Part shown: positions 1,738 to 54,033 of the stretch, piece after piece
How positions within the stretch are numbered: position 1 is the first letter of the stretch
How the letters are laid out: the number at the start of each line of letters is the position of its first letter
Sequence record: MT596505.1
Length of the DNA: 64,000 nucleotides
Source of the DNA: Staphylococcus phage vB_SepM_BE08
Strand: one strand, 5' to 3'
The notes under the pieces: model-generated
What the model was told of the DNA's origin: nothing
What the model saw: the letters and a program-made list of their open reading frames with translations, nothing else
The model's database searches: none
Position numbers and translations under genes: made by a program

Positions 1738-2045
1738 TTAATATTTCTCCTTATTATTTTTTATCCTAGGTATAGTATAATATAACAAAAATTAACGGGG
1801 AAGGGTATGAGTACATAAGAAAGTTATTTATTATTTTTTTTGTTGACTTTTGTAGATTATAGTTTATTTTTAAGGTGGTTTATAGGGAACCTGAGGTAGG
1901 TATACTAGGGTATTATTACACCCCTTGTTTATGGCAATTTATAACGGGGCGTATATATAAAAAAATTATACAATATCATAGATATATTAATTCACTCTTT
2001 AACTATTCCTTTTTATATTTATTTATAAAAATTTTTTTATTTTAT

Positions 2046-2990: not shown

Positions 2991-3019
2991 ATAATAACAT
3001 GATATATAAATGTTGTCAA
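2991..3019 (-). promoter_or_regulatory. sigma-A-type promoter TTGACA-N17-TATTAT
   Basis: tgtcaa 3014-3019, ataata 2991-2996 (plus coords). Confidence 0.6.
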
Positions 3020-3049
3020 CACTTTTTTATTTAAAATATTAAACGGAAA

Positions 3050-3334
3050 TTATTCCGCTTCTTCTTGCATAGCAATAAAATCATTATATTTTTCTTCATT
3101 ATCTGTATAAGTAATTATCAAATCTGAAGACCATTCATTTAAATAAACCTCTTCAATAATTGCATATTTACGAACGATACGACCAAATTTTATTTTTTCT
3201 TGGCTATTGTCTATTGTGAATTCATCCGCAAGTGAGCCGATGAATCTATTAACCTCTAACCCCCAATCTGAACATTGTTCAACTAAATTTTCCGCAATTT
3301 CTAGTGTAATTTGTTTCTTAATATCTTTTTTCAT
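3050..3334 (-). CDS. small acidic hypothetical protein
   Basis: ORF, SD AAAGGA, own promoter. Confidence 0.6.
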   Translation of the reverse strand: MKKDIKKQITLEIAENLVEQCSDWGLEVNRFIGSLADEFTIDNSQEKIKFGRIVRKYAIIEEVYLNEWSSDLIITYTDNEEKYNDFIAMQEEAE

Positions 3335-3366
3335 TTGTAATAATTCCTTTCTTAACTTTCTATAAT

Positions 3367-3395
3367 TATAATATCATGTTATAGTTACGTTGTCA
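3367..3395 (-). promoter_or_regulatory. sigma-A-type promoter TTGACA-N17-TATTAT
   Basis: tgtcaa 3390-3395. Confidence 0.6.
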
Positions 3396-3406
3396 ATAGT
3401 TTTTTT

Positions 3407-3670
3407 TTAAATTTCTAAATATCTTTTTTTGTCTGTATCTGGGTTGTGAATTTCAATTTTTAAAGTTGTATCATTATTAAATACTGAGCAAATTGTTTCA
3501 TTATCTAAATTCATTAATTTGTTGTTAATTACATAATCAAAAATTTCATCCATTAGTTTATCTTCTTTTTCAGTGTTTGGCTTATCTTCATATAAATCCT
3601 TACCATCGTTAAAGTTTTCAATATCCATAAAGTTATAGTTTGATAAAAATTCATTTTTGAAATTTGTCAT
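3407..3670 (-). CDS. small acidic hypothetical protein (start re-assigned to internal ATG; track start is a TTG lying in the -35 box)
   Basis: SD GAGAGGAATTGATTACT-ATG at 3670; TTGACA at 3731-3736 is the promoter. Confidence 0.5.
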   Translation of the reverse strand: MTNFKNEFLSNYNFMDIENFNDGKDLYEDKPNTEKEDKLMDEIFDYVINNKLMNLDNETICSVFNNDTTLKIEIHNPDTDKKRYLEI

Positions 3671-3707
3671 AGTAATCAATTCCTCTCTTGTTTTAATTTC
3701 TATATTT

Positions 3708-3736
3708 ATATTAACATGTATTATGTAAGGTGTCAA
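3708..3736 (-). promoter_or_regulatory. proximal promoter P2 TTGACA-N17-TAATAT
   Basis: tgtcaa 3731-3736. Confidence 0.6.
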
Positions 3737-3799
3737 TACCTTTTTTTATTTTTTTCTGTAAGGTGTGGGAGTTTTCCGCTCCCTTAACCTTACATCTTT

Positions 3800-3828
3800 A
3801 TATTATCATAGTTTCAAATTACTGTCAA
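3800..3828 (-). promoter_or_regulatory. distal tandem promoter P1 TTGACA-N17-TAATAT, separated from P2 by hairpin tgtaaggt...accttaca
   Basis: tgtcaa 3823-3828; conserved hairpin 3760-3797. Confidence 0.5.
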
Positions 3829-3843
3829 TAGTTTTTTTAAAAT

Positions 3844-4182
3844 TTATTCTACAAATTCTATAGGCTCAATTTCCCCGTCTTCTAGTAGTTCATTGTAGCG
3901 TTCTACAATTTCATTGTAATTGTCTTTCAATAGTTCTTTATAGTCTAGGTTGTCTAAGCTGTCTAAGTTACCGTAAACGTTAATCGTGAAATAATCATCA
4001 TTCCAATCAAACTCTCCAAAGTGTGCCATTCTTAAGATTTCAGTAACTGATGTGTCTACTAAAATATCGTCTAGTTCATCCATTGGATTATAGTCAAATT
4101 CTTCTAAACTGTCATCCCATGCGTTAACCTCTCTTACGATTTCTTTTAATTGTTCTACTGTGTATTTTTTCATTTTAATCAA
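3844..4182 (-). CDS. small acidic hypothetical protein
   Basis: ORF; leader AAAGGAATTGATTAAA-ATG. Confidence 0.6.
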   Translation of the reverse strand: MIKMKKYTVEQLKEIVREVNAWDDSLEEFDYNPMDELDDILVDTSVTEILRMAHFGEFDWNDDYFTINVYGNLDSLDNLDYKELLKDNYNEIVERYNELLEDGEIEPIEFVE

Positions 4183-4213
4183 TTCCTTTTCTTTGTTTTT
4201 GTTTTTCTTTCTA

Positions 4214-4247
4214 TAATTATAATACCATGTGCTTTAGTTTCTGTCAA
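4214..4247 (-). promoter_or_regulatory. promoter P2 TTGACA-N17-TATTAT
   Basis: tgtcaa 4242-4247. Confidence 0.55.
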
Positions 4248-4303
4248 TACTTTTTTTAAAGTTTTTTTTATTTTTTTCTGTAAGGTGTTTCCTTAACCTT
4301 ACA

Positions 4304-4337
4304 ACTATATAATATCAAATAGTGAAGAGATTGTCAA
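4304..4337 (-). promoter_or_regulatory. distal promoter P1 TTGACA-N17-TATTAT with conserved hairpin downstream
   Basis: tgtcaa 4332-4337; hairpin 4277-4303. Confidence 0.5.
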
Positions 4338-4339
4338 CA

Positions 4340-4486
4340 CTATTTGATAAAAATATTTATACTATCTTGAATACTAATCAAGTAATCAAGAGTAGTTATA
4401 ATAGTTGTGCCACCTACTAAGGTAACCAAAGCGTCAGTTAATTCTGTGCTTTTATATGATTTGTTTTTATATTTAAATTTAATCAT
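4340..4486 (-). CDS. unlisted small ORF (~48 aa, MIKFKYKNKSYKSTELTDALVTLVGG...)
   Basis: ATG 4 nt after stop of upstream gene; SD AAGGAG 8 nt upstream. Confidence 0.4.
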   Translation of the reverse strand: MIKFKYKNKSYKSTELTDALVTLVGGTTIITTLDYLISIQDSINIFIK

Positions 4487-4489
4487 TTT

Positions 4490-4738
4490 TTAAGCTCCTT
4501 TTTTTATATATTTTGTTTTATTATCATTAAGAATAAGTTTAACACATTTAGGAGTAGTAGATATTTCTTTTGTTCCTGTGCCATATAGATTTAAACATGA
4601 TAAATTTATTTTATAGAACAAATCATCACATTCTTCAATGTTAGACCATTGAGAAACATCAGGTGTTATAGTTCCCTGCTCTTTAATTCTTTCGTATGTG
4701 TCGGCTATATAGTTTTTATAATTATTCATTTGTAACAA
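4490..4738 (-). CDS. hypothetical protein
   Basis: ORF; leader AAAGGAATTGTTACAA-ATG; promoter tgtcaa 4787-4792. Confidence 0.6.
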   Translation of the reverse strand: MLQMNNYKNYIADTYERIKEQGTITPDVSQWSNIEECDDLFYKINLSCLNLYGTGTKEISTTPKCVKLILNDNKTKYIKKGA

Positions 4739-4802
4739 TTCCTTTCTTTATTTGTTAAGTTAATAATAACATGTGTTGGGGTTGAGTGTCAACCCCTTTA
4801 TT

Positions 4803-4958
4803 TAATTTTTATTTTTGTAACTCTTCTAGTTCTTTTTTAGCTTTCTTAATCTCTCTTCTTGCTTCCGCTTCTTCTTTCTTAGTAAGGTCTTGGAATTCCA
4901 ATTCCATTTCTAAGTTCTCGATAATGCTTTCTAGTTCTAATTCTCTCATTTGTAACAA
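4803..4958 (-). CDS. unlisted small Glu/Lys-rich coiled-coil ORF (51 aa, MRELELESIIENLEMELEF...)
   Basis: Same leader as neighbour (45-bp direct repeat 4732-4776 and 4952-4996); promoter tgtcaa 5006-5011; plus ORF 4786..4983 is antisense artefact. Confidence 0.5.
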
Positions 4959-5032
4959 TTCCTTTCTTTATTTGTTAAGTTAATAATATCATAAAGGCTT
5001 GAGAGTGTCAAGCCTTTATTTAATTTTTTTAT

Positions 5033-5152
5033 TGTGGAAATCTTCCAGTATCTTCTAGCGTTTCATTACCTTTGAACGTTGGGTAATATTCTAATTCTTC
5101 CACCCATTCGTTAAATTCTACACTATCTAATAATTGGTCTAAATTCATTTCT
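5033..5152 (-). CDS. unlisted small acidic ORF (39 aa, MNLDQLLDSVEFNEWVEELEYY...)
   Basis: leader AAAGGAATTGATAGAA-ATG; promoter tgtcaa 5209-5214 TTGACA-N17-TAATAT. Confidence 0.45.
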
Positions 5153-5324
5153 ATCAATTCCTTTTCTGTTTGATTTGTTATCTTTATATTAACATGTAAG
5201 TTTCAGATTGTCAACACATTTTATTAATTTTTTTATTTCTTTTTTTTTGTGTTGTTCCCTGTTCCTTACAAATACTATTATATCAAATATACTATATAAG
5301 TCAATAGTTTTTTAAAAGAAAAAA

Positions 5325-5382
5325 GTGTAAAATTTACCTATTGACAAATGGTAGTTTTTAATATATAATAGAAGTGATGACC
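5325..5382 (+). promoter_or_regulatory. conserved plus-strand promoter element GTGTAAAATTnnCCTATTGACA-N17-TATAAT-aGAAGTGATGAC (copy 1)
   Basis: TTGACA 5341-5346, TATAAT 5364-5369; near-identical copy at 8169-8226. Confidence 0.5.
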
Positions 5383-5617
5383 TTTTTTAGTATAAGAATA
5401 AAATTAAATAATTTTTTTATTTAATAAAAATTAGGTTAGGTCTTTCCTGTTACCCCTCTTGGGCAACTCTGGTATCTCTACAATTATTATTATACAGTAG
5501 TAAGCAAATAAAGTCAATAGATATTTAAAAGAAATTTTACACCTTAAATTTTAATATATAAAAAATGAATATAAATTTAAACAAACAAAATAACCTAGGA
5601 ATTTAATCCTAGGTTAT
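5370..5617 (+). ncRNA. candidate ORF-less plus-strand transcript between consensus promoter and CTAGGAATTTAATCCTAG terminator hairpin
   Basis: no ORF with RBS in 245 nt; antisense orientation relative to flanking genes. Confidence 0.2.
5593..5616. terminator. bidirectional terminator hairpin aacctaggaatttaatcctaggtt (family copy 1 of 3)
   Basis: perfect palindrome with U-runs on both strands; immediately after stop of 5630..6199. Confidence 0.6.
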
Positions 5618-5629
5618 TCTATAACTTTT

Positions 5630-6199
5630 TTAATTATTTTCATTGAATTCTTTAAATAATTCTAATTGATTATTTTTAAAATCAGTTATATATTTATAAC
5701 CTTTTCTAACTGCTTTTAAATCTTTAAACATATAATATAAACTGTCTTGTAATTCTTCAAATTCTGCTTGCAAGTCGTCTTGCAAGTCTTCTATATCGTC
5801 ATTCAAGTTACTGTAATATTCTTCAAAGTTATCTGATAGGAATACGTCTTCAAGCTCATTTAATCCATAGCCTAGAACGTCAAATATATCTTCATTGTCT
5901 TGTACGTCAAATAATTCAAAGTCAGTCATTACGCTTTTAGGTACGATTTTGAATGATGAAGTTGTTCCTAGTTGTTCTGTTTCTAACCCATTGTCTTTTA
6001 GGTATTCTGTAAATTCATCAAATTCAAGCTCACAGAAGCTATTAAACATTCTCATATCTTCTTCAGTTTCTAAAGTGAAAGCAACATCATGAAGCTTCAC
6101 ATTTGTATAGCCTAGCTTTTCTACATGTTTTTTAATATTCATAAATTGTTTATTTAATTTTTCTGTTTCTTTTTTAATTTCATTATATAGTTTTTTCAT
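5630..6199 (-). CDS. acidic hypothetical protein (189 aa)
   Basis: ORF; leader GAAGGGAACTGATTTAA-ATG; promoter tgtcaa 6294-6299 TTGACA-N17-TATTAT. Confidence 0.6.
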   Translation of the reverse strand: MKKLYNEIKKETEKLNKQFMNIKKHVEKLGYTNVKLHDVAFTLETEEDMRMFNSFCELEFDEFTEYLKDNGLETEQLGTTSSFKIVPKSVMTDFELFDVQDNEDIFDVLGYGLNELEDVFLSDNFEEYYSNLNDDIEDLQDDLQAEFEELQDSLYYMFKDLKAVRKGYKYITDFKNNQLELFKEFNENN

Positions 6200-6303
6200 T
6201 TAAATCAGTTCCCTTCAAATTCTATAATTTTTTTATTTGCTTTAGGTCATTTCCTTAACCTTGTGTCTTAATAATAACATGTTGTGTTTAAGTTGTCAAT
6301 AGT

Positions 6304-6433
6304 TATTTTGAATATTTTACAATTTTATTTGCTTTCAAAAATGTAACATCTTGACGGTAGTTTTTTAATTCTTCTGCAAAATTTTCATTATTTTTCATAC
6401 CGATTAATTTTAAAGTTGTTGTAATTTTTTTCA
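6304..6433 (-). CDS. unlisted small ORF (~43 aa, MKKITTTLKLIGMKNNENFAEELKNYRQDV...)
   Basis: leader GAAGGGAATTGATTTAA-ATG, ~50-bp duplicate of leader at 6190-6250; promoter tgtcaa 6547-6552. Confidence 0.45.
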
Positions 6434-6984
6434 TTTAAATCAATTCCCTTCAAATTCTATAATTTTTTTATTTAATTTCTTTAGGTTAGAAGCGGTTGAC
6501 CGCTTCCTTAACCTTACAATTATATAATATCATAGTTTCAAGTGACTGTCAACACTTTTTAAAAAATTAATTCTTTTTCTTTTTTACTATCCATATACAT
6601 TTTTATTTCACAACATAACCAAAGTGTTATCATTTGTAACAACCCCTAATTAATAATTTTTTTATATAATTCTTGTAAGGTTTGTTATTTCTTTCCCTTA
6701 CAACTATTATATTACTACACATTAAAACCAATTGCAACCCCTAAATGCAAATTTTTTTAAGAAAAAAAATAATAAAAAAGTTGGTAAAACCCCTTTACAA
6801 ATACCGTAGAATTTGTTATTCTATATATAGAAAGAAAGCGGTGACCTGCATCCATGTCCGCTATATAAATGAAGTTGTAGGGGGAAAGACCAACCCTAAA
6901 CCTTTTTATATAAAAAAGTTATTTAATTTTATTTTTATATTAAAAAAAGATTCCCACTCTATTATAGCATTTTTAATATAATAT

Positions 6985-6990
6985 TGTCAA
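6985..6990 (-). promoter_or_regulatory. -35 box of minus-strand promoter TTGACA-N18-TATAAT driving an ORF-poor segment (6730-6960)
   Basis: tgtcaa 6985-6990; tataat revcomp 18 nt downstream. Confidence 0.4.
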
Positions 6991-7054
6991 GTGTTAATTT
7001 TACACCTTTATTTTTATTATATAATTTTTTTATATAAATTTAAAAAATAAAAAA

Positions 7055-7074
7055 CCTAGGAATTTAATCCTAGG
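7055..7074. terminator. terminator hairpin cctaggaatttaatcctagg (family copy 2)
   Basis: identical palindrome to 5593-5616. Confidence 0.5.
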
Positions 7075-7122
7075 CTTAATATTATTTAATATAATTTTTT
7101 TTTATTTAATTCAGAAGCGGTA

Positions 7123-7404
7123 TTATTTAACCGCTTCTATTTCCTTAACTGTTTCTAGTGCCCATTTGATAGTTTCTTCAATGTTGTAGCTTTGGAACAC
7201 TACACCGCCACCGAACCATTTGGCAGTGTACTTTTTAAAACCGTATAGCTTGTTAATATCGTCATAATCCCAAAGGCTAATACCTAGGTCGCTAAAGTGT
7301 ACTACATATCTAGGGTTTCCGTTATTATCATTTTCAATTCTGAACACTGTAATCTCGTTTCCATTTACTGTCACTGTTTCTTCATATTTAAAATTCTTTT
7401 TCAT
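7123..7404 (-). CDS. hypothetical protein (93 aa)
   Basis: ORF; leader AAAAGGATTTGATTTAA-ATG; promoter tgtcaa 7499-7504 TTGACA-N17-TAATAT; GAAGCGGT hairpin over stop. Confidence 0.6.
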   Translation of the reverse strand: MKKNFKYEETVTVNGNEITVFRIENDNNGNPRYVVHFSDLGISLWDYDDINKLYGFKKYTAKWFGGGVVFQSYNIEETIKWALETVKEIEAVK

Positions 7405-7607
7405 TTAAATCAAATCCTTTTCTATATATTTTTTATTAAATTTCTATTCCGTGTGCTTGATTACCTTACATCTTTATATTACCATGTATCTTATAAGCTG
7501 TCAACACCTTTTTTTAATTTTTTTATTTTTTTTCTTGTTGTTGTTGTTTCCTTTTCCCTTACAAGTATTATTATAGCAAATAGGGGTTTTGATTGCAACC
7601 CCTAATT

Positions 7608-7916
7608 TTAAATTATTTCATCAAAAACAATTTCCCCGTTATCAATAACGATAACGCCACCTTGTACAATAAAGAAAGTTAACCCTTTATATTCCCGTGC
7701 TATTCCGTAATCATAAGGCGTTTTACCAAATAGCTTATTTCTTTTATAAAAAGTAATATCTTCACTATATAAGCCACTAGGTACATGTACAGTCAATTCT
7801 GGATGCCAACCTGTACCCCCTAAATCGTTTCGGTATAAGTTTTTGGACTTATAACCATCATAACCAAATGTTTCCATTATATTATTTGCAATTAATTCTA
7901 TATTATTTTTATACAA
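7608..7916 (-). CDS. hypothetical protein; start re-assigned to TTG 10 nt after AAAGGA (track start has 1-nt SD spacing)
   Basis: leader AAAGGAATTGATAATA-TTG matches family leader; aggggtt...aacccct hairpin after stop. Confidence 0.45.
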   Translation of the reverse strand: MYKNNIELIANNIMETFGYDGYKSKNLYRNDLGGTGWHPELTVHVPSGLYSEDITFYKRNKLFGKTPYDYGIAREYKGLTFFIVQGGVIVIDNGEIVFDEII

Positions 7917-8168
7917 TATTATCAATTCCTTTCTGTGAATTACTGTAATTATATATTACCATTTATCTTATGATTAATCAATAGATTTACATGAATTTAT
8001 TTAAATTTTTTTATTGGTCTGTTTTCTACTATTATATGAAGAAACTGGAAAATAGGTTAAAATAAAATTAGATTGTGTACAACAAGATCTCACCATAAAA
8101 AAATTATTCTATAAAAAAATTATAGAAATATAATGTACCTGTCATGATCCATTTATAAACAGAAATAA

Positions 8169-8226: not shown

Positions 8227-8501
8227 ATCTTTAAGTTAATAAATATATTATATAAAAAAATTATATAATACCCTTTTTTTATAACCCACCCACCACTCCA
8301 ATTATTATGTTAAGGCATTTTTGCCAATTTGTCAAGAGGTAAATTTTACACTTTTTTCTTTTGTAAATAGTGTAAAATTGCCCTAAAAACTTTTAAAATT
8401 ATATTTACAAATACGGTAATATGCTGTAATATATTAAGTGTAGTAAGCAAGGGAAACAAATTCCCACTACAAATATTATATAAAAAAGGAATTGATTAAA
8501 A

Positions 8502-8723
8502 ATGAAAAACGTTAAAAATTTAAAAAATTGGTTAAAAAGAAATGATTATGATTTTGAAGAATACAACACGCCAGACGGTTGTGGGAGCACATTGAAAGGG
8601 ATTATCATTCATAACATTGAATTTGCTACTGAGAATGATGAACTAGTTGCTCTATTCCCTGATGGTGATTATGAACACATGACAAACAGACAAGCTTATA
8701 ACTTTATAAGAAAAAACATTTAA
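8502..8723 (+). CDS. hypothetical protein (73 aa)
   Basis: leader AAAGGAATTGATTAAAA-ATG on plus strand; promoter-like TTTACA-N17-TAATAT at ~8402-8431. Confidence 0.6.
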   Translation: MKNVKNLKNWLKRNDYDFEEYNTPDGCGSTLKGIIIHNIEFATENDELVALFPDGDYEHMTNRQAYNFIRKNI

Positions 8724-8755
8724 TAAAAAAATTAATTAAAAAGGAATGAATTATA

Positions 8756-8956
8756 ATGACACATATTAAAGTAGATAAAAGAAAATCATTAAATAAAAAT
8801 ATAAAAGAAAATGGATTAAAAAAAGAATTAAATAAAAATAGTGGAAAAATAAAAATAAAAGAAAGTTTATTAAGAAAAGCAAAAAGAAATAATGATATAG
8901 AAAAAATTAATAAACTAGAAAATGAATTAAAAAAATTATATAATCAATTAGACTAG
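8756..8956 (+). CDS. small lysine-rich basic protein (66 aa)
   Basis: SD AAAGGAATG; terminator hairpin ctagggaaaaccctag over stop. Confidence 0.55.
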   Translation: MTHIKVDKRKSLNKNIKENGLKKELNKNSGKIKIKESLLRKAKRNNDIEKINKLENELKKLYNQLD

Positions 8957-8976
8957 GGAAAACCCTAGTCTTTTTA
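8953..8976 (+). terminator. rho-independent terminator ctaggg-aaaa-ccctag + TTTTT
   Basis: palindrome plus T-run. Confidence 0.65.
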
Positions 8977-8996
8977 TGTTCTATATCTTATATCTT

Positions 8997-9189
8997 TTTT
9001 AGGGGAAATCCGTACGATACTACTTGCTATTTTTAGGGGAAAATCGACACCAGACTACTTGAAACAACTAGCCTTTTTCATACAATACTACTTACTAATT
9101 ATGTATATTTATAAGAATATTTGAATAAAATTCATGCAATACTACTTACATTATATAGTTAATATATAAACAATACTACTTGAATATAT
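8997..9189. repeat. five degenerate 34-bp tandem units with conserved core CAATACTACTTG (iteron-like array)
   Basis: core starts at 9018, 9052, 9086, 9139, 9173 (spacings 34, 34, 53, 34); first two units also share TTTTAGGGGAAA. Confidence 0.7.
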
Positions 9190-9600
9190 AATAGTATTCA
9201 GGAAGGTAGTGGGTAGATTAACCCCCTAGTATTAAAAAAGATATTAATACTAGAGCTAAATCATATTTCAGTTTAGGCTAGGTCTAGTTTCATTTTTGTT
9301 AATATTTTTACACGCACTCTTATCCACGCAACCTAACTTAATAGGTTAATACTACCCCGTTCATATTGAACCTAAGAGTCCTCCCTGTCCTTTATTGCTT
9401 GGTAGACACCACCAACTATGGTAGAAGGTATAGTGTATCTATACCTACAAAGTATAAGCATTGCATATCTTATACCCGCCCTGTGAGTTTTATGCAGGTG
9501 CTCGTGGCTCACTATCACCACATCATTGTCGCTATTCCTATAGGTTCCTATGCATGACCTATACTCATCAGCTCTTTATCTTATTGTACTTATACTATAC
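9190..9600. ncRNA. GC-elevated (~40%) ORF-free island with multiple hairpins; candidate structured RNA or foreign DNA remnant
   Basis: compositional contrast with ~28% GC surroundings; only junk ORFs (Cys/His/Tyr-rich, no RBS). Confidence 0.2.
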
Positions 9601-9720
9601 CATACTTTTAATATCAGGTCAAGTAAAAAATGATAACTTTTACTTATTACTTATTATAAGTTTATCTTATTGTAAATAAAACCTTTTTGAAATTTTTGAG
9701 TACCCTATTGTAAAAATTTT

Positions 9721-9829
9721 TAAGGGGGTATCATCCTAAATTTTTTAAGGTCTTCATCCTAAAAAAATAAGACCGCTTCATCCTATTTAAGTGAAGCGGT
9801 TTAACCTAAATATACTTCATCTTAAAAAA
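9721..9829 (+). promoter_or_regulatory. four direct repeats of TTCATCCTAAA (plus GAAGCGGT hairpin) immediately upstream of a consensus promoter
   Basis: repeat cores at ~9731, 9754, 9777, 9816. Confidence 0.45.
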
Positions 9830-9832
9830 TTA

Positions 9833-9861
9833 TTGACAATCTAATTATCCTATAGTATAAT
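9833..9861 (+). promoter_or_regulatory. consensus sigma-A promoter TTGACA-N17-TATAAT
   Basis: ttgaca 9833-9838; tataat 9856-9861. Confidence 0.65.
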
Positions 9862-9902
9862 TAACTTAACAAATTAAATTTATTAAGAAAGGAGTTAATA
9901 CA

Positions 9903-9983
9903 TATGATTAACTTTTTAATTGGAGTATTTGTAGGTGGAACATTAGTATTAATCGAGAATGTAATTATGAATAAATATATGTA
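9903..9983 (+). CDS. 26-aa hydrophobic peptide (MINFLIGVFVGGTLVLIENVIMNKYM)
   Basis: strong SD AAAGGAG 9 nt upstream; single predicted TM segment. Confidence 0.4.
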
Positions 9984-9995
9984 GGAGTGATACAA

Positions 9996-10181
9996 ATGTC
10001 TTTAAGTACATTATTTGGAACTATAGGAGTTATTTTATTAGCAATTGTATTTTTAATAGTGACTATTGAAGCTATTATTGAATTAATAAAAGAGAAAATG
10101 TATATACAGTTAGTTATTTTCTTATTATTAGTATTAGGTTTAATATCATTAATATTAGCATCTATATTCAAATATTATTAA
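9996..10181 (+). CDS. 61-aa two-TM membrane protein (start re-assigned to ATG with SD AGGAG)
   Basis: two hydrophobic stretches; track start GTG lacks SD; antisense ORF 9965..10171 rejected. Confidence 0.5.
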   Translation: MSLSTLFGTIGVILLAIVFLIVTIEAIIELIKEKMYIQLVIFLLLVLGLISLILASIFKYY

Positions 10182-11175: not shown

Positions 11176-11850
11176 TTAATCAATTGTAGTACCTAAAAAG
11201 AATTGATAAGCATTAAAAATATTCCTTTTTTCTTTCTCATTATCTTTATTCATTTCTAATCCTTTTTCTAAAAACTCTTCTAAATTACCTTTCCAGCAAC
11301 CAGCAAATATTTTATCTTGCTCTGGTAAATACGTTACTTTACCTGCAAATGTACCTATATTGTCAATTGAATATACTTCTAGTCCTTCAGTACATCGGGT
11401 ATTAGCTTGAGATAAATTAACATCTTCTAGATTACAATTTTCTAAATGAGCGTTATCTAAATTAACATTCTTTAAACTAGCATTTTTAAAATCAACACAT
11501 CTTAAATAAGAACTATCTAAATTAGCACCATATAAGTTAGCATTTTTCAAATTAACACTATTTAAGTCAATATTTTCTAAATTAGAAAAACTTATAATAG
11601 CCTTTGTTAAATCCATCTTTACTAAATCAGCATCTTTTAAAGTAGAAAAACTTAAATCAGAGTAACTTAAATCTACATTACTTAAAATAGAACAACTTAA
11701 ACTAGAGTACCTTAAATCAGAATTACTTAAATCTAAATTTCTTAAGTTATAACCATTTAATTCTAACTTTTCCCCTTTGTTATCATCTTCTAACCATTCT
11801 TTATGCAATTCAATTTTATTGTTTAATTCTTCTTGTGTAATTTTTTTCAT
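11176..11850 (-). CDS. pentapeptide-repeat protein (Qnr/MfpA-like fold, tandem A(D/N)LxX repeats)
   Basis: ~25 consecutive pentapeptide repeats readable in translation; SD AAAAGGAGAAG; promoter tgtcaa 11906-11911. Confidence 0.75.
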   Translation of the reverse strand: MKKITQEELNNKIELHKEWLEDDNKGEKLELNGYNLRNLDLSNSDLRYSSLSCSILSNVDLSYSDLSFSTLKDADLVKMDLTKAIISFSNLENIDLNSVNLKNANLYGANLDSSYLRCVDFKNASLKNVNLDNAHLENCNLEDVNLSQANTRCTEGLEVYSIDNIGTFAGKVTYLPEQDKIFAGCWKGNLEEFLEKGLEMNKDNEKEKRNIFNAYQFFLGTTID

Positions 11851-12839: not shown

Positions 12840-12912
12840 TACTACATGGACTATACATTAGAATAGTTTAACTATATATTAGAACAATTGAATAGTATAT
12901 CAGAATAGTTGA

Positions 12913-12948: not shown

Positions 12949-13218
12949 TTTATTATTAAGTTGTATACAATAGTAATGTAATGTTTAAATATACTATAGT
13001 AGTAATATAAATAAATTATAGTAAACAGGTAACGTCAAAACAGGTCAAGACAACGAATAGGACAGACAAAAAAATCCTAGGGTAATTGGTTTACTTTTTT
13101 CTTTTTTTCTATATACTTTTAATTTTTCCTTATTTATACTATATGGTTTTCTTCTCTCCTTTTATCTCCTCTCTTCTACTTTTTTAAATAACTCTACCTA
13201 CATATCTATTTTTTTATC

Positions 13219-52627: not shown

Positions 52628-54033
52628 ATTTATTCTTCATCCGTTGTCAAAAACTTATAAAACTTTATAAATCTTATTCCTTTTTCAATGTACCCTCTTT
52701 TGAGTATTTCATATACATAGATTACTTCTTATTACTCTACTTGAGTTTGTATGATACTCCAAAGGCTTAAATTCCCGTACAACGAACGGTACATATATTT
52801 AGTATCTTGTTTTTGATATTCTAAATATTGTAGTTAGCTAAATTAATACTTGCATTGAGGTCTCTATCAAGACTAAAACCACATTCACAGTTAAATATTC
52901 TATCTGATAGTTTTAGGTTTTGATTAATAGTTCCACAGTTAGAACAAGTTTTACTAGAAGGATAAAATCTGTCTGCTAGTATAACTTCAATACCCTTTCT
53001 TTTACACTTATACTCTAACTGTCTTCTAAACTCGTAGAAACCTTGTTTTTGTATTGCTTTAGCTAAATGCCTATTCTTCATCATACCACTTACATTTAAA
53101 TCTTCTATAACAATTCTTCTAGGTTTGGTTTTCACGATAGAAGTTGTTGTTTGATGTAAATGGTTTTTACGAATGTTAGACAATCTTCGTTGTAGGAGTT
53201 TAATTTGTTTTTCAAGTTTTATAATATTGCAAGTTTTGACAAACTTTCCTCCTTCTTTATTTTTTTGATATTTACGAGATACCTTACGTTGCAATCTACG
53301 TAATCGTTTTTCTAGTTTTTTAACTTTTACTGTTTTATTTATGTTTCCATAAATAGTTCCATCAGAACATATTACTAATTCTTTTATTCCTAAATCAATA
53401 CCTAGTGATTCATCAGTTAGTTCTTCGTAGATGTTTTCTTCTTCAATAGAAACACTTATATACCAATATTTACCATCAAAAGTAATTCTAGGATTATAAT
53501 ACTTAGTATTCGTTGGTAGTTGTTCTGATGTTTTAACCCAACCTATTCTTTGTAACAATACTAAATTTTCTTTTACTCTTAATCTATGTGTATCATTATA
53601 AAAACTAGGTTTTGTTTTCTTCTTATATTTAAACTTAGGAAATTTAGCTTGTCCTTTAAAGAAACGCTTATAAGAAATACAAGCATCTTTAACTGCTTGT
53701 TTAGGAATATTGTTACTAACTTCTTTTAGCCATTTATACTCTTCTGTTTTCTTTAACTGAGTAATTTCTTTACGTAAAACAGAATCTTGTATAAACTTTT
53801 TTCCTTGTTTATAATTTTCTTGTTGTTTTGCTAAAGTCCAGTTGTATATAAATCTTGCTGTTCCTGCTGATTTATATAATTGTAGCTCTTGTTGTTTAGT
53901 AGGTCTAAGCCTAACTTTTTTAGTTATCATTATTTAGCCCACCTTAAGATATGTTATCACCTCTACAAGTATTATAACATATCTTAGGTAAAAATGCAAC
54001 TTAATTTATAAAAAAGTTATAAATTTATATTAA
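52628..54033 (-). mobile_element. IS200/IS605-family (IS1341-type) element carrying tnpB only; left-end-like 13-bp inverted-repeat hairpin at 53944-53987; long 3' noncoding tail
   Basis: unusually long flanking gaps (193 and 103 nt) around tnpB; subterminal hairpin; boundaries not determinable. Confidence 0.4.
52821..53930 (-). CDS. tnpB: TnpB (OrfB) RuvC-like RNA-guided nuclease: RuvC-I IDLGIKE, RuvC-II IVIEDLN, Zn finger CSNCG...CECG, RuvC-III DRDLNASINLA
   Basis: all catalytic motifs intact; N-terminal LRPTKQQELQL motif. Confidence 0.8.
   Translation of the reverse strand: MITKKVRLRPTKQQELQLYKSAGTARFIYNWTLAKQQENYKQGKKFIQDSVLRKEITQLKKTEEYKWLKEVSNNIPKQAVKDACISYKRFFKGQAKFPKFKYKKKTKPSFYNDTHRLRVKENLVLLQRIGWVKTSEQLPTNTKYYNPRITFDGKYWYISVSIEEENIYEELTDESLGIDLGIKELVICSDGTIYGNINKTVKVKKLEKRLRRLQRKVSRKYQKNKEGGKFVKTCNIIKLEKQIKLLQRRLSNIRKNHLHQTTTSIVKTKPRRIVIEDLNVSGMMKNRHLAKAIQKQGFYEFRRQLEYKCKRKGIEVILADRFYPSSKTCSNCGTINQNLKLSDRIFNCECGFSLDRDLNASINLANYNI

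Follow-up and report, generated by a model that had tools for sequence, protein, structure and literature searches.

Twort-like myoviruses (K, 812, ISP, SEP1 and their relatives) are the main therapeutic phages against staphylococci, and the organization of their long terminal repeats (LTRs) is poorly understood. We analysed a 64,000-nucleotide stretch (the window) of Staphylococcus phage vB_SepM_BE08 (sequence record MT596505.1), in which a first-pass annotation had marked an array of five short repeats between a terminator and a G+C-richer island. The window belongs to a Sepunavirus (Herelleviridae, Twortvirinae) of Staphylococcus epidermidis with ~99% identity to Terranova, and its region 8400-9900 had 98-99% identity to the S. 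epidermidis myoviruses of that genus (Terranova, Twillingate, phiIPLA-C1C, 110, 80A/B and BE25). Its G+C content is ~25%, the majority of its genes lie on its minus strand, and its orientation is opposite to that of the Sepunavirus records; the conventional plus strand of the phage is the minus strand of the window. Coordinates and strands are those of the window unless stated otherwise.

Structure of the repeat array

Scanning with the 12-mer CAATACTACTTG at up to two mismatches returned five core copies, all on the plus strand, with starts at 9015, 9050, 9083, 9137 and 9171 (Table 1). The first-pass annotation had given 9018, 9052, 9086, 9139 and 9173, which do mark the cores and fall 2-3 nt inside each of them; its 34-bp phasing with one 53-bp gap comes near the measured spacing, which is 35, 33, 54 and 34 bp. 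Only the last copy (9171-9182) is an exact CAATACTACTTG. The core reads CTAAGTAG(C/T) in the conventional orientation and ACTACTTG (box B) on the window plus strand. An alignment of the window with Terranova, SEP1, Quidividi and an IMG/VR contig resolved the full unit of 34-35 bp into box A (TTTTTAGGGGAAAATC), 8-9 variable nt, box B ((A)TACTACTTG) and ~3 nt more. The motif reported earlier as common to the first two units, TTTTTAGGGGAAA(A)TC, was found at 8996-9011 and 9030-9045, and a second box, GGATTTCCCCTA, is present in some units only.

Chance was assessed with 200 shuffles that kept local composition, scoring the largest same-strand cluster per 200 bp. The window reached five copies, while the shuffles reached one (172 of 200) or two (28 of 200) and never more, so the five-unit array is real. 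The core is not dispersed over the genome: the 7-mer ACTACTT occurred 19 times against 21.6 expected, with no enrichment, and the array holds four exact matches to the 9-mer ATACTACTT, against a single one (13462) in the rest of the 64 kb, with both strands searched. The array is also the sole non-coding 7-mer cluster with at least five copies in the window, the other clusters of that size lying within a pentapeptide-repeat gene (11176-11850).

The ORF-free setting described in the first pass was borne out, with no open reading frame (ORF) of at least 40 aa over 8957-9365 and a G+C-richer island from 9196. The terminator at the left, which had been called a plus-strand one, does lie there and is bidirectional, and it is also annotated in Terranova, SEP1 and Quidividi. 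No tRNA was found over the array, and Rfam assigned it to no family, the sole match being to CRISPR-DR14 at chance level (23.9 bits against a gathering score of 45, E = 2.7).

Table 1 Features of the array locus and of the terminal-repeat ends predicted in the window (^ marks a junction)
Feature	Position	Strand	Sequence elements and remarks
Unit 1	8995..9029	+	Box A TTTTTAGGGGAAATCC 8996-9011, core CGATACTACTTG 9015-9026; kept in all Sepunavirus relatives
Unit 2	9030..9062	+	Box A TTTTTAGGGGAAAATC 9030-9045, core CCAGACTACTTG 9050-9061
Unit 3	9063..9096	+	Degenerate box A CCTTTTTCATA, core CAATACTACTTA 9083-9094; SEP1 identity ends at 9093
Extra spacer	9097..9116	.	A+T-rich; cause of the single 54-bp interval
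Unit 4	9117..9150	+	Degenerate box A TTTGAATAAAATTCATG, core CAATACTACTTA 9137-9148
Unit 5	9151..9182	+	Core CAATACTACTTG 9171-9182
Inverted repeat AATACTA / TAGTATT	9172..9198	.	Links the last core to the island start; TATAAT at 9187-9192
Bidirectional intrinsic terminator	8950..8971	.	AGACTAGGGAAAACCCTAGTCT; end of plus-strand ORFs 8502-8723 and 8756-8956; left bound of the array
Conserved 68-bp leader or promoter element	8420..8487	+	Upstream of treI-position genes; synteny anchor to MSA6 3474-3546
Candidate structured RNA (island), ~400 nt	9196..9622	-	Own promoter TTGACC-17-TGgTATAGT at 9622-9594; neighbour, outside the array
Predicted right LTR end	1885..1900 (~1894/1895)	-	..CCTAC^CTCAGGT..; homologous to the mapped 812 and ESa1 right ends
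Probable left LTR end	13072..13087 (13080^13079)	- (conventional orientation)	..AATTACCC^TAGGATTTTTTTG..; record starts

Conservation within Sepunavirus

At least the part of the array up to ~9047 is kept in all 15 of the Sepunavirus-like records, and the array is also present in three IMG/VR contigs (L055, L064 and L066). Pattern scans of IMG/VR with box A plus box B (41 loci) and with paired cores (28 loci) recovered only these three as relatives, the remaining loci being chance matches or unrelated tandem repeats. Copy number within the genus is four to five, and boxes A and B are conserved with a variable stretch of 8-9 nt between them. SEP1 and L055 have four units, the fourth of which aligns with window unit 4 and carries in full the box A that is degenerate in the window; Quidividi likewise has four units, with different inter-box sequences. 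Contig L064 (IMGVR_UViG_3300006456_000001) is a 226,865-bp Sepunavirus sequence that starts inside the island, at window 9608; it far exceeds the 140-kb genome and may be a concatemer or a chimeric assembly.

Identity to the window ends inside the array, at 9093 in SEP1 and at 9047 in Quidividi and BE04. Beyond these points, the island is replaced in SEP1 by SEP1_141, a 192-aa HNH-like gene (phrog_59, E = 4e-10), and in Quidividi by a 315-aa HNH homing endonuclease (Quidividi_011), the cassette segment spanning window 9094-9790 as compared with L007 2234-2930 and L008 2232-3260. Homology to both phages resumes at a consensus promoter (9833-9861), and in SEP1 a further core copy, ACATACTACTTAC, stands past the cassette. 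These identity breaks and differing cassettes indicate that the array stays in place next to an exchangeable cassette on its right. Absence from viable relatives, which had been named in the first pass as counter-evidence, applies to units 4-5, missing from SEP1 and Quidividi, and does not apply to units 1-3/4, which every relative keeps.

Orthologous arrays in other Twort-like phages

Arrays of the same core were found in phages outside the genus. Those of Kayvirus and Stab23 hold four to six copies of CTAAGTAGCTC, the reverse complement of the window core (ACTACTTAG/ACTACTTG); counted on the same strand, there are five copies of ACTACTT in the window, four to five of (C)TACTT(A/G) in PG-2021_10 and four to six in Kayvirus/Stab23. 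The core CTAAGTAGCTC is exact in 14 of 15 Kayvirus/Stab23 units, and the 12-14 nt between cores differ. ESa1 (Kayvirus) has five copies at 3226-3335, spaced 23-25 bp and inside a mapped 10,437-bp terminal repeat, with a plus-strand gene on one side and the terminator of a convergent 112-aa gene on the other. The four copies of MSA6 (Kayvirus) extend from the treH stop codon, between treH(+) and treI(-) (2899-2999), and lie 2.9 kb inside its annotated 8,049-bp LTR; this segment was matched in 182 phage records (Kayvirus), at 2.7-3.5 kb where the record starts at the LTR. Stab23, with an annotated LTR of 12,304 bp, has six copies at ~5.6 kb, and its last copy is followed by GGATTTCCCCTAG, the box A of Sepunavirus. 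Arrays are 2.9-5.7 kb inside the LTR in the four relatives in which it has been mapped or annotated (MSA6, ESa1, Stab23 and Sa83).

PG-2021_10, a Staphylococcus xylosus phage of another lineage, carries in order a terminator/hairpin block, CTAGGGGAAAATATCGAGAACTACTTGAC, three more copies of (C)TACTTAG and an island of the window type, with cores spaced 46, 37, 51 and 33 bp. Its terminator/hairpin block, compared by eye, is near-identical to the reverse complement of ESa1 3340-3440, and PG-2021_10 bridges the Kayvirus and Sepunavirus forms of the array.

Position is conserved along with the core. The 68-bp element of the window, which includes a hairpin (GTAGT..ACTAC), has counterparts of 81-85% identity in >200 records of Kayvirus and other Twortvirinae, always just upstream of the treI-position gene, while the ORFs downstream of it are non-homologous between genera (window ORF 8502-8723 had no similarity to ESa1 TreI). 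Homologues of TreK and TreN lie beyond the array region in the window. The array is always on the same strand, with the end of a conventional plus-strand transcription unit on one side and, on the other, the bidirectional terminator shared by the convergent treI-position gene, ahead of which stands the 68-bp leader. Judged by this shared core, strand and position, the window array appears to be the orthologue of an LTR-internal array present in Kayvirus, Stab23, the PG-2021_10 group and Sepunavirus. It was unannotated in the records that we examined, and we found no description of it in the literature searched.

We also considered an array without present function, left behind by slippage, recombination or homing at a hot spot of cassette exchange. 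The adjoining swap site, which holds the island RNA, SEP1_141 or Quidividi_011, would suit such a relic, as would the extra SEP1 core beyond the cassette and the degeneration of window units 3-5. We nevertheless regard it as quite improbable, since four genus-level groups with unalignable flanks, and the 182 Kayvirus records, all keep the core with its place and orientation unchanged, and since it is invariant where spacers vary, a pattern that indicates purifying selection.

Ends of the terminal repeat

In Kayviruses 812 and K, the unit genome terminates in a tandem repeat of 35 bp, TATTAYTACTACTAAGTACCTTTGTTATGTACTAC, present in 2 to >20 copies (PMC6445280). At Kayvirus left junctions the last repeat copy abuts LTR position 1 (..TAAGTACCT^GGGAATTC, also read ..TAAGTACCT^GGG), and in ESa1, with ends mapped by PhageTerm, the repeat occurs once (..GTTACCTG^GGAAAAC). 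Right ends read ..GGTCTAC(C)^C(C)AGGTACTTATTTTTTGGGGAAAATT, followed by AAGTCAACA repeats, and the left and right junctions together indicate that the Kayvirus LTR is bracketed by an inverted motif (TACCTGG / CCAGGTA).

The minus-strand sequence from window 1960 to 1880 aligns to the right ends of 812 and ESa1, sharing the blocks TATTGTATAATTTTTTTA, TGCCA, GGGGGTG and CTACC(T)CAGGT, and the identity of several relatives, Terranova among them, to the window breaks off just beyond, at 1882. Together these place the right LTR end of the window at ~1894/1895, and we consider this prediction (~1895) to be strong. The left end is predicted with moderate confidence at 13079. All three of the Terranova, Twillingate and Quidividi records start at 13079^13080, the homology of 80A/80B breaks at 13083, and the DNA outside 13079 is of low complexity, (TA)n and (ATT)n, as in MSA6. 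The resemblance of 13079 to Kayvirus left junctions is statistically weak (z ~2-2.6), and Smith-Waterman alignment with shuffles gave z = 2.0-3.0 for 13079, for 9196 and for the plus-strand segment 8950-9190 alike, with no discrimination among them. The predicted Sepunavirus LTR measures ~11.2 kb and, if the predicted ends hold, the array would lie ~3.9 kb from its left end and 7.1 kb from its right end. For Sepunavirus, we found no mapped termini in the papers or records examined. Single copies of AAAGTCAACA occur just outside both predicted ends in inverted orientation (~1845, minus; 13381, plus), and Terranova, Quidividi and Kayvirus have three to five copies outside the right end.

The array could alternatively be the LTR boundary itself, or a site of terminase recognition or cutting, as the counterpart of the Kayvirus 35-bp junction repeat. 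The period of ~35 bp is alike in the two, a TACTAC-type core resembles TATTAYTACTACTAAGTACC... of the junction repeat (PMC6445280), mosaic breakpoints fall inside the array at 9047 and 9093, and the internal Kayvirus core has ACTAAGTA in common with the junction repeat. When the left junction of K and the start of its LTR were compared by blastn with window 8900-10000, however, only chance-level matches were returned, and the junction-like sequences of the window are those at ~1895 and 13079, outside 8995-9196. The BE25 record, which ends in the array (9017), was examined as a possible terminus; its start maps to 9093, giving a 77-bp overlap of its ends, and we read its end in the array as an assembler artefact. 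With right and probable left ends predicted elsewhere and orthologous arrays 2.9-5.7 kb inside the LTR, the window array behaves as the orthologue of an internal LTR element, and we therefore reject a boundary or packaging site as very improbable.

The 8-mer ACTAAGTA is found in Kayvirus both in the internal core, (C)ACTAAGTAG, and in the 35-bp junction repeat, TACTACTAAGTACC (L004 1140-1232, L092 395-500, L010 885-900), with an inverted copy, AGGTACTTA, immediately beyond the right LTR end, where the adjacent TTTTTTGGGGAAAATT resembles the Sepunavirus box A. These likenesses may be a coincidence or may reflect a shared recognition motif.

The array at the boundary of immediate-early expression

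Expression of gp010-021 in phage K is highest directly after infection, whereas gp001-004 reach their maximum at 2-5 min and gp007-008 theirs at 5-10 min (PMC11598898). The Kayvirus array, in K terms, lies between gp008/treH and gp009/treI. The very-early module of SEP1 is gp142-154 (PMC11265418); it starts at SEP1_142, adjoining the array, and runs to about the predicted right LTR end. In both phages the array falls where the immediate-early genes (gp010-021 in K, gp142-154 in SEP1) give way to LTR genes that are expressed later.

An invariant core among varying spacers, kept in position and on one strand across flanks that cannot be aligned, points to selection on a short sequence that is read repeatedly, and the simplest reader of such a sequence is a DNA-binding protein. 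We tentatively favour the reading that the array is a cluster of putative binding sites for one DNA-binding protein and acts as a boundary element, which we consider a serious possibility while stopping short of calling it probable. One sequence-specific protein would bind the core repeats, in some units together with the second box GGATTTCCCCTA, and the cluster, once occupied, would divide the LTR in two, either by marking the boundary or by enforcing it: a first part, the immediate-early block, that would enter first and be expressed at once, and a second that would be expressed later. Both a protein ligand that acts on DNA and the function as a boundary are inferred here.

Several observations weigh against this reading. 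The binding protein is only putative, and the adjoining ORFs matched only PHROGs families of unknown function, except for the HNH-like SEP1 cassette. Neither Sepunavirus (35/33/54/34) nor PG-2021_10 (46/37/51/33) has helically coherent spacing, and the second box is confined to some units, at a distance from the core that varies (8-21 nt in Kayvirus). Units 4-5 are dispensable, as SEP1 and Quidividi show, and the array, standing in a transcribed 3' region, may act at the RNA level. The terminator and the promoter classes could by themselves produce the expression boundary, and the Sepunavirus LTR ends are predicted ones. A fixed offset of one helical turn between core and box A was also considered, and dropped in view of the Kayvirus offsets of 8-21 nt.

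Of the functions proposed in the first pass, a multi-site operator is not supported, because classical operators do not sit at convergent 3' ends beside a terminator, and the array is at the 3' end of convergent transcription units, beside a terminator and not a promoter. Nothing points to a partition site, the phage being strictly lytic. By its sequence, the array is a multi-site element that may be of more than one kind.

A possible role in staged DNA entry

The coincidence with the immediate-early boundary would also be expected of a DNA-entry pause signal like that of T5. The right end would enter first and translocation would stall with the array, its G/C tracts flanked by A/T tracts, at the neck; the cell would then hold only the immediate-early block, until the products of that block released the remaining genome. 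Phage 812 ejects its right end first and retains discrete lengths of residual left-LTR DNA, and sequence-encoded pausing has been proposed for it, an AT tract followed by a GC tract bringing about an A-form switch in the adaptor (PMC12886913). Box A, as TTTTTAGGGGAAAA, fits such an AT-then-GC composition, and runs of at least four G or C are rare in the window (54 in 64 kb). The array stands at the limit between immediate-early and later genes in K and SEP1, and gp001-004 peak after gp010-021 although P-treA matches the TTGACA-17-TATAAT promoter sequence perfectly. This last difference in timing may have other causes, though, and ESa1 units 1-2 have CTCTCT in place of the C tract; two-step entry is hypothetical in Twort-like phages. 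We consider an entry pause an attractive though unlikely hypothesis; if it were true, it would extend T5-like two-step DNA transfer to Twort-like therapeutic phages of Gram-positive hosts.

Window ~3000-8000 is the host-takeover region of Tre genes, and in its Twillingate counterpart gp17 is the type III-A anti-CRISPR AcrIIIA1 (PMC11662646).

Rival readings: replication origin and RNA-level function

The first-pass description of the array as iteron-like is a fair one, as a short invariant core is repeated four to six times on one strand with spacers that differ among relatives. An origin, which it had suggested on these grounds, would use the repeats as iterons for a phage initiator and an adjacent, easily melted (TA)n palindrome as unwinding element. 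The architecture is most iteron-like in Kayvirus, where an 11-bp invariant core recurs every 23-25 bp, and the palindrome TCTATATATATATAGA stands directly beside the array in Kayvirus and PG-2021_10, with a remnant (TTCTATATCTTATATC) in the window. Repeat spacing is irregular, at 33-54 bp, in Sepunavirus and PG-2021_10. For phage K, however, the proposed origin is another pair of repeats, located at ~39.2 kb, outside the LTR, where a gap without transcription separates gp190 from gp191 (PMC11598898). The array region of K, by contrast, is transcribed, with snc001 (3114-3628) adjoining or overlapping the array. The array is probably not an origin, a role that we rate as distinctly unlikely.

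Transcription of the region raises the alternative of an element that works in RNA, in the 3' untranslated part of conventional plus-strand transcripts. These would be the treA-H mRNA in Kayvirus and the island RNA or HNH mRNA in Sepunavirus, in which CUAAGUAG and UCCC(C) would bind a protein, an RNase or host RNAs. UCCC is the seed motif of the staphylococcal Rsa small RNAs. The array is always downstream of a conventional plus-strand unit and upstream of the terminator of that unit, and its orientation relative to transcription is kept across genera. Synteny explains this conserved orientation equally well, however, and the minimum-free-energy folds of five array versions (transcribed strand) had no common structure and did not place the motifs consistently in loops; together with the lack of an Rfam match, this leaves an RNA-level role with a distinctly small chance of being correct. 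We retain a cluster of putative protein-binding sites at the immediate-early boundary as the preferred reading.

Neighbouring features

The island to the right of the array is predicted to be transcribed towards it, from an extended -10 promoter that was conserved in five of five aligned sequences. RNAalifold on four sequences predicted 57 pairs over 9196-9590, of which 19 show compensatory double changes, and no match was found in Rfam 15; this modelling marks the island as a promising new structured-RNA candidate, read from the window minus strand. Homologues are found in CF5 (Silviavirus), PG-2021_10 and Baoshanvirus BS1/Golestan101, and a scan of IMG/VR with the conserved block of the island recovered only two Sepunavirus contigs and one contig of 149,229 bp. 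Array and island are separable, SEP1 and Quidividi having the array only, and BS1 and CF5 the island without a clear array. CF5 and PG-2021_10 have a palindrome and TATAAT similar to those of the window just ahead of the TTCAGG island start.

Other short repeats lie near promoters and hairpins of the region. TCATCCTA occurs four times (9730-9825) directly upstream of the perfect TTGACA-17-TATAAT promoter at 9833-9861, and in Kayvirus TAATCTA occurs five times upstream of the treA promoter, in a place equivalent to that of the TCATCCTA repeats. AGAATAGTT occurs three times near a hairpin (12850-12910). Farther away, a RAGATH-18 RNA motif was found at 52677-52765 on the minus strand, above the Rfam gathering score (61 bits, E = 1e-9).

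Implications and comparison with known systems

The array is a non-coding element of the Twort-like LTR, conserved yet unannotated, which splits the repeat at the point of onset of immediate-early expression. It offers a concrete target for finding a binding protein and for probing staged DNA entry or early transcription. It is also a target for phage engineering, because the neighbouring site naturally tolerates cassette exchange, holding either a candidate structured RNA or one of two HNH genes; CRISPR-assisted editing has been carried out in Twillingate (PMC11662646).

Its closest counterpart is the Kayvirus treH/treI array, which is like it in core, strand, position and number of copies (four to six), and the arrays of Stab23 and PG-2021_10 additionally have box A in common with it. 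The two forms differ in that the Kayvirus unit is 23-25 bp long with an 11-nt invariant core, whereas the Sepunavirus unit is 33-35 bp long (54 bp in one case), its core is looser and its box A is repeated, and the genes flanking the arrays are non-homologous between the two genera.

The Kayvirus 35-bp junction repeat (PMC6445280) resembles the array in its ~35-bp period, TACTAC-rich core, variable copy number, non-coding nature and association with the LTR. It abuts LTR position 1 from outside, its last copy forming the cut junction, whereas the window array is internal to the probable LTR; the array is also not a perfect tandem, unlike the 35-bp repeat, and has no detectable sequence homology to it.

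Among more distant systems, the iterons of plasmids and lambdoid phages are likewise direct repeats of a short core, in four to six copies on one strand beside an A+T-rich, easily melted segment, but the array has no adjacent initiator gene and its Sepunavirus spacing is irregular. The SRL and SRR arrays of T7 are short imperfect direct repeats that flank the terminal repetition and act in concatemer processing; they are like the window array as short imperfect direct repeats tied to a direct terminal repeat, and differ from it in flanking that repeat, to which the window array is internal. The injection stop signal region of T5 is a repeat-rich non-coding segment in the long terminal repeat that delimits the first-entering host-takeover DNA. 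The array has in common with it this repeat-rich, non-coding character and a place in the LTR at the limit of the host-takeover DNA that would enter first; the two have no sequence relationship, and the analogy between them is a functional one.

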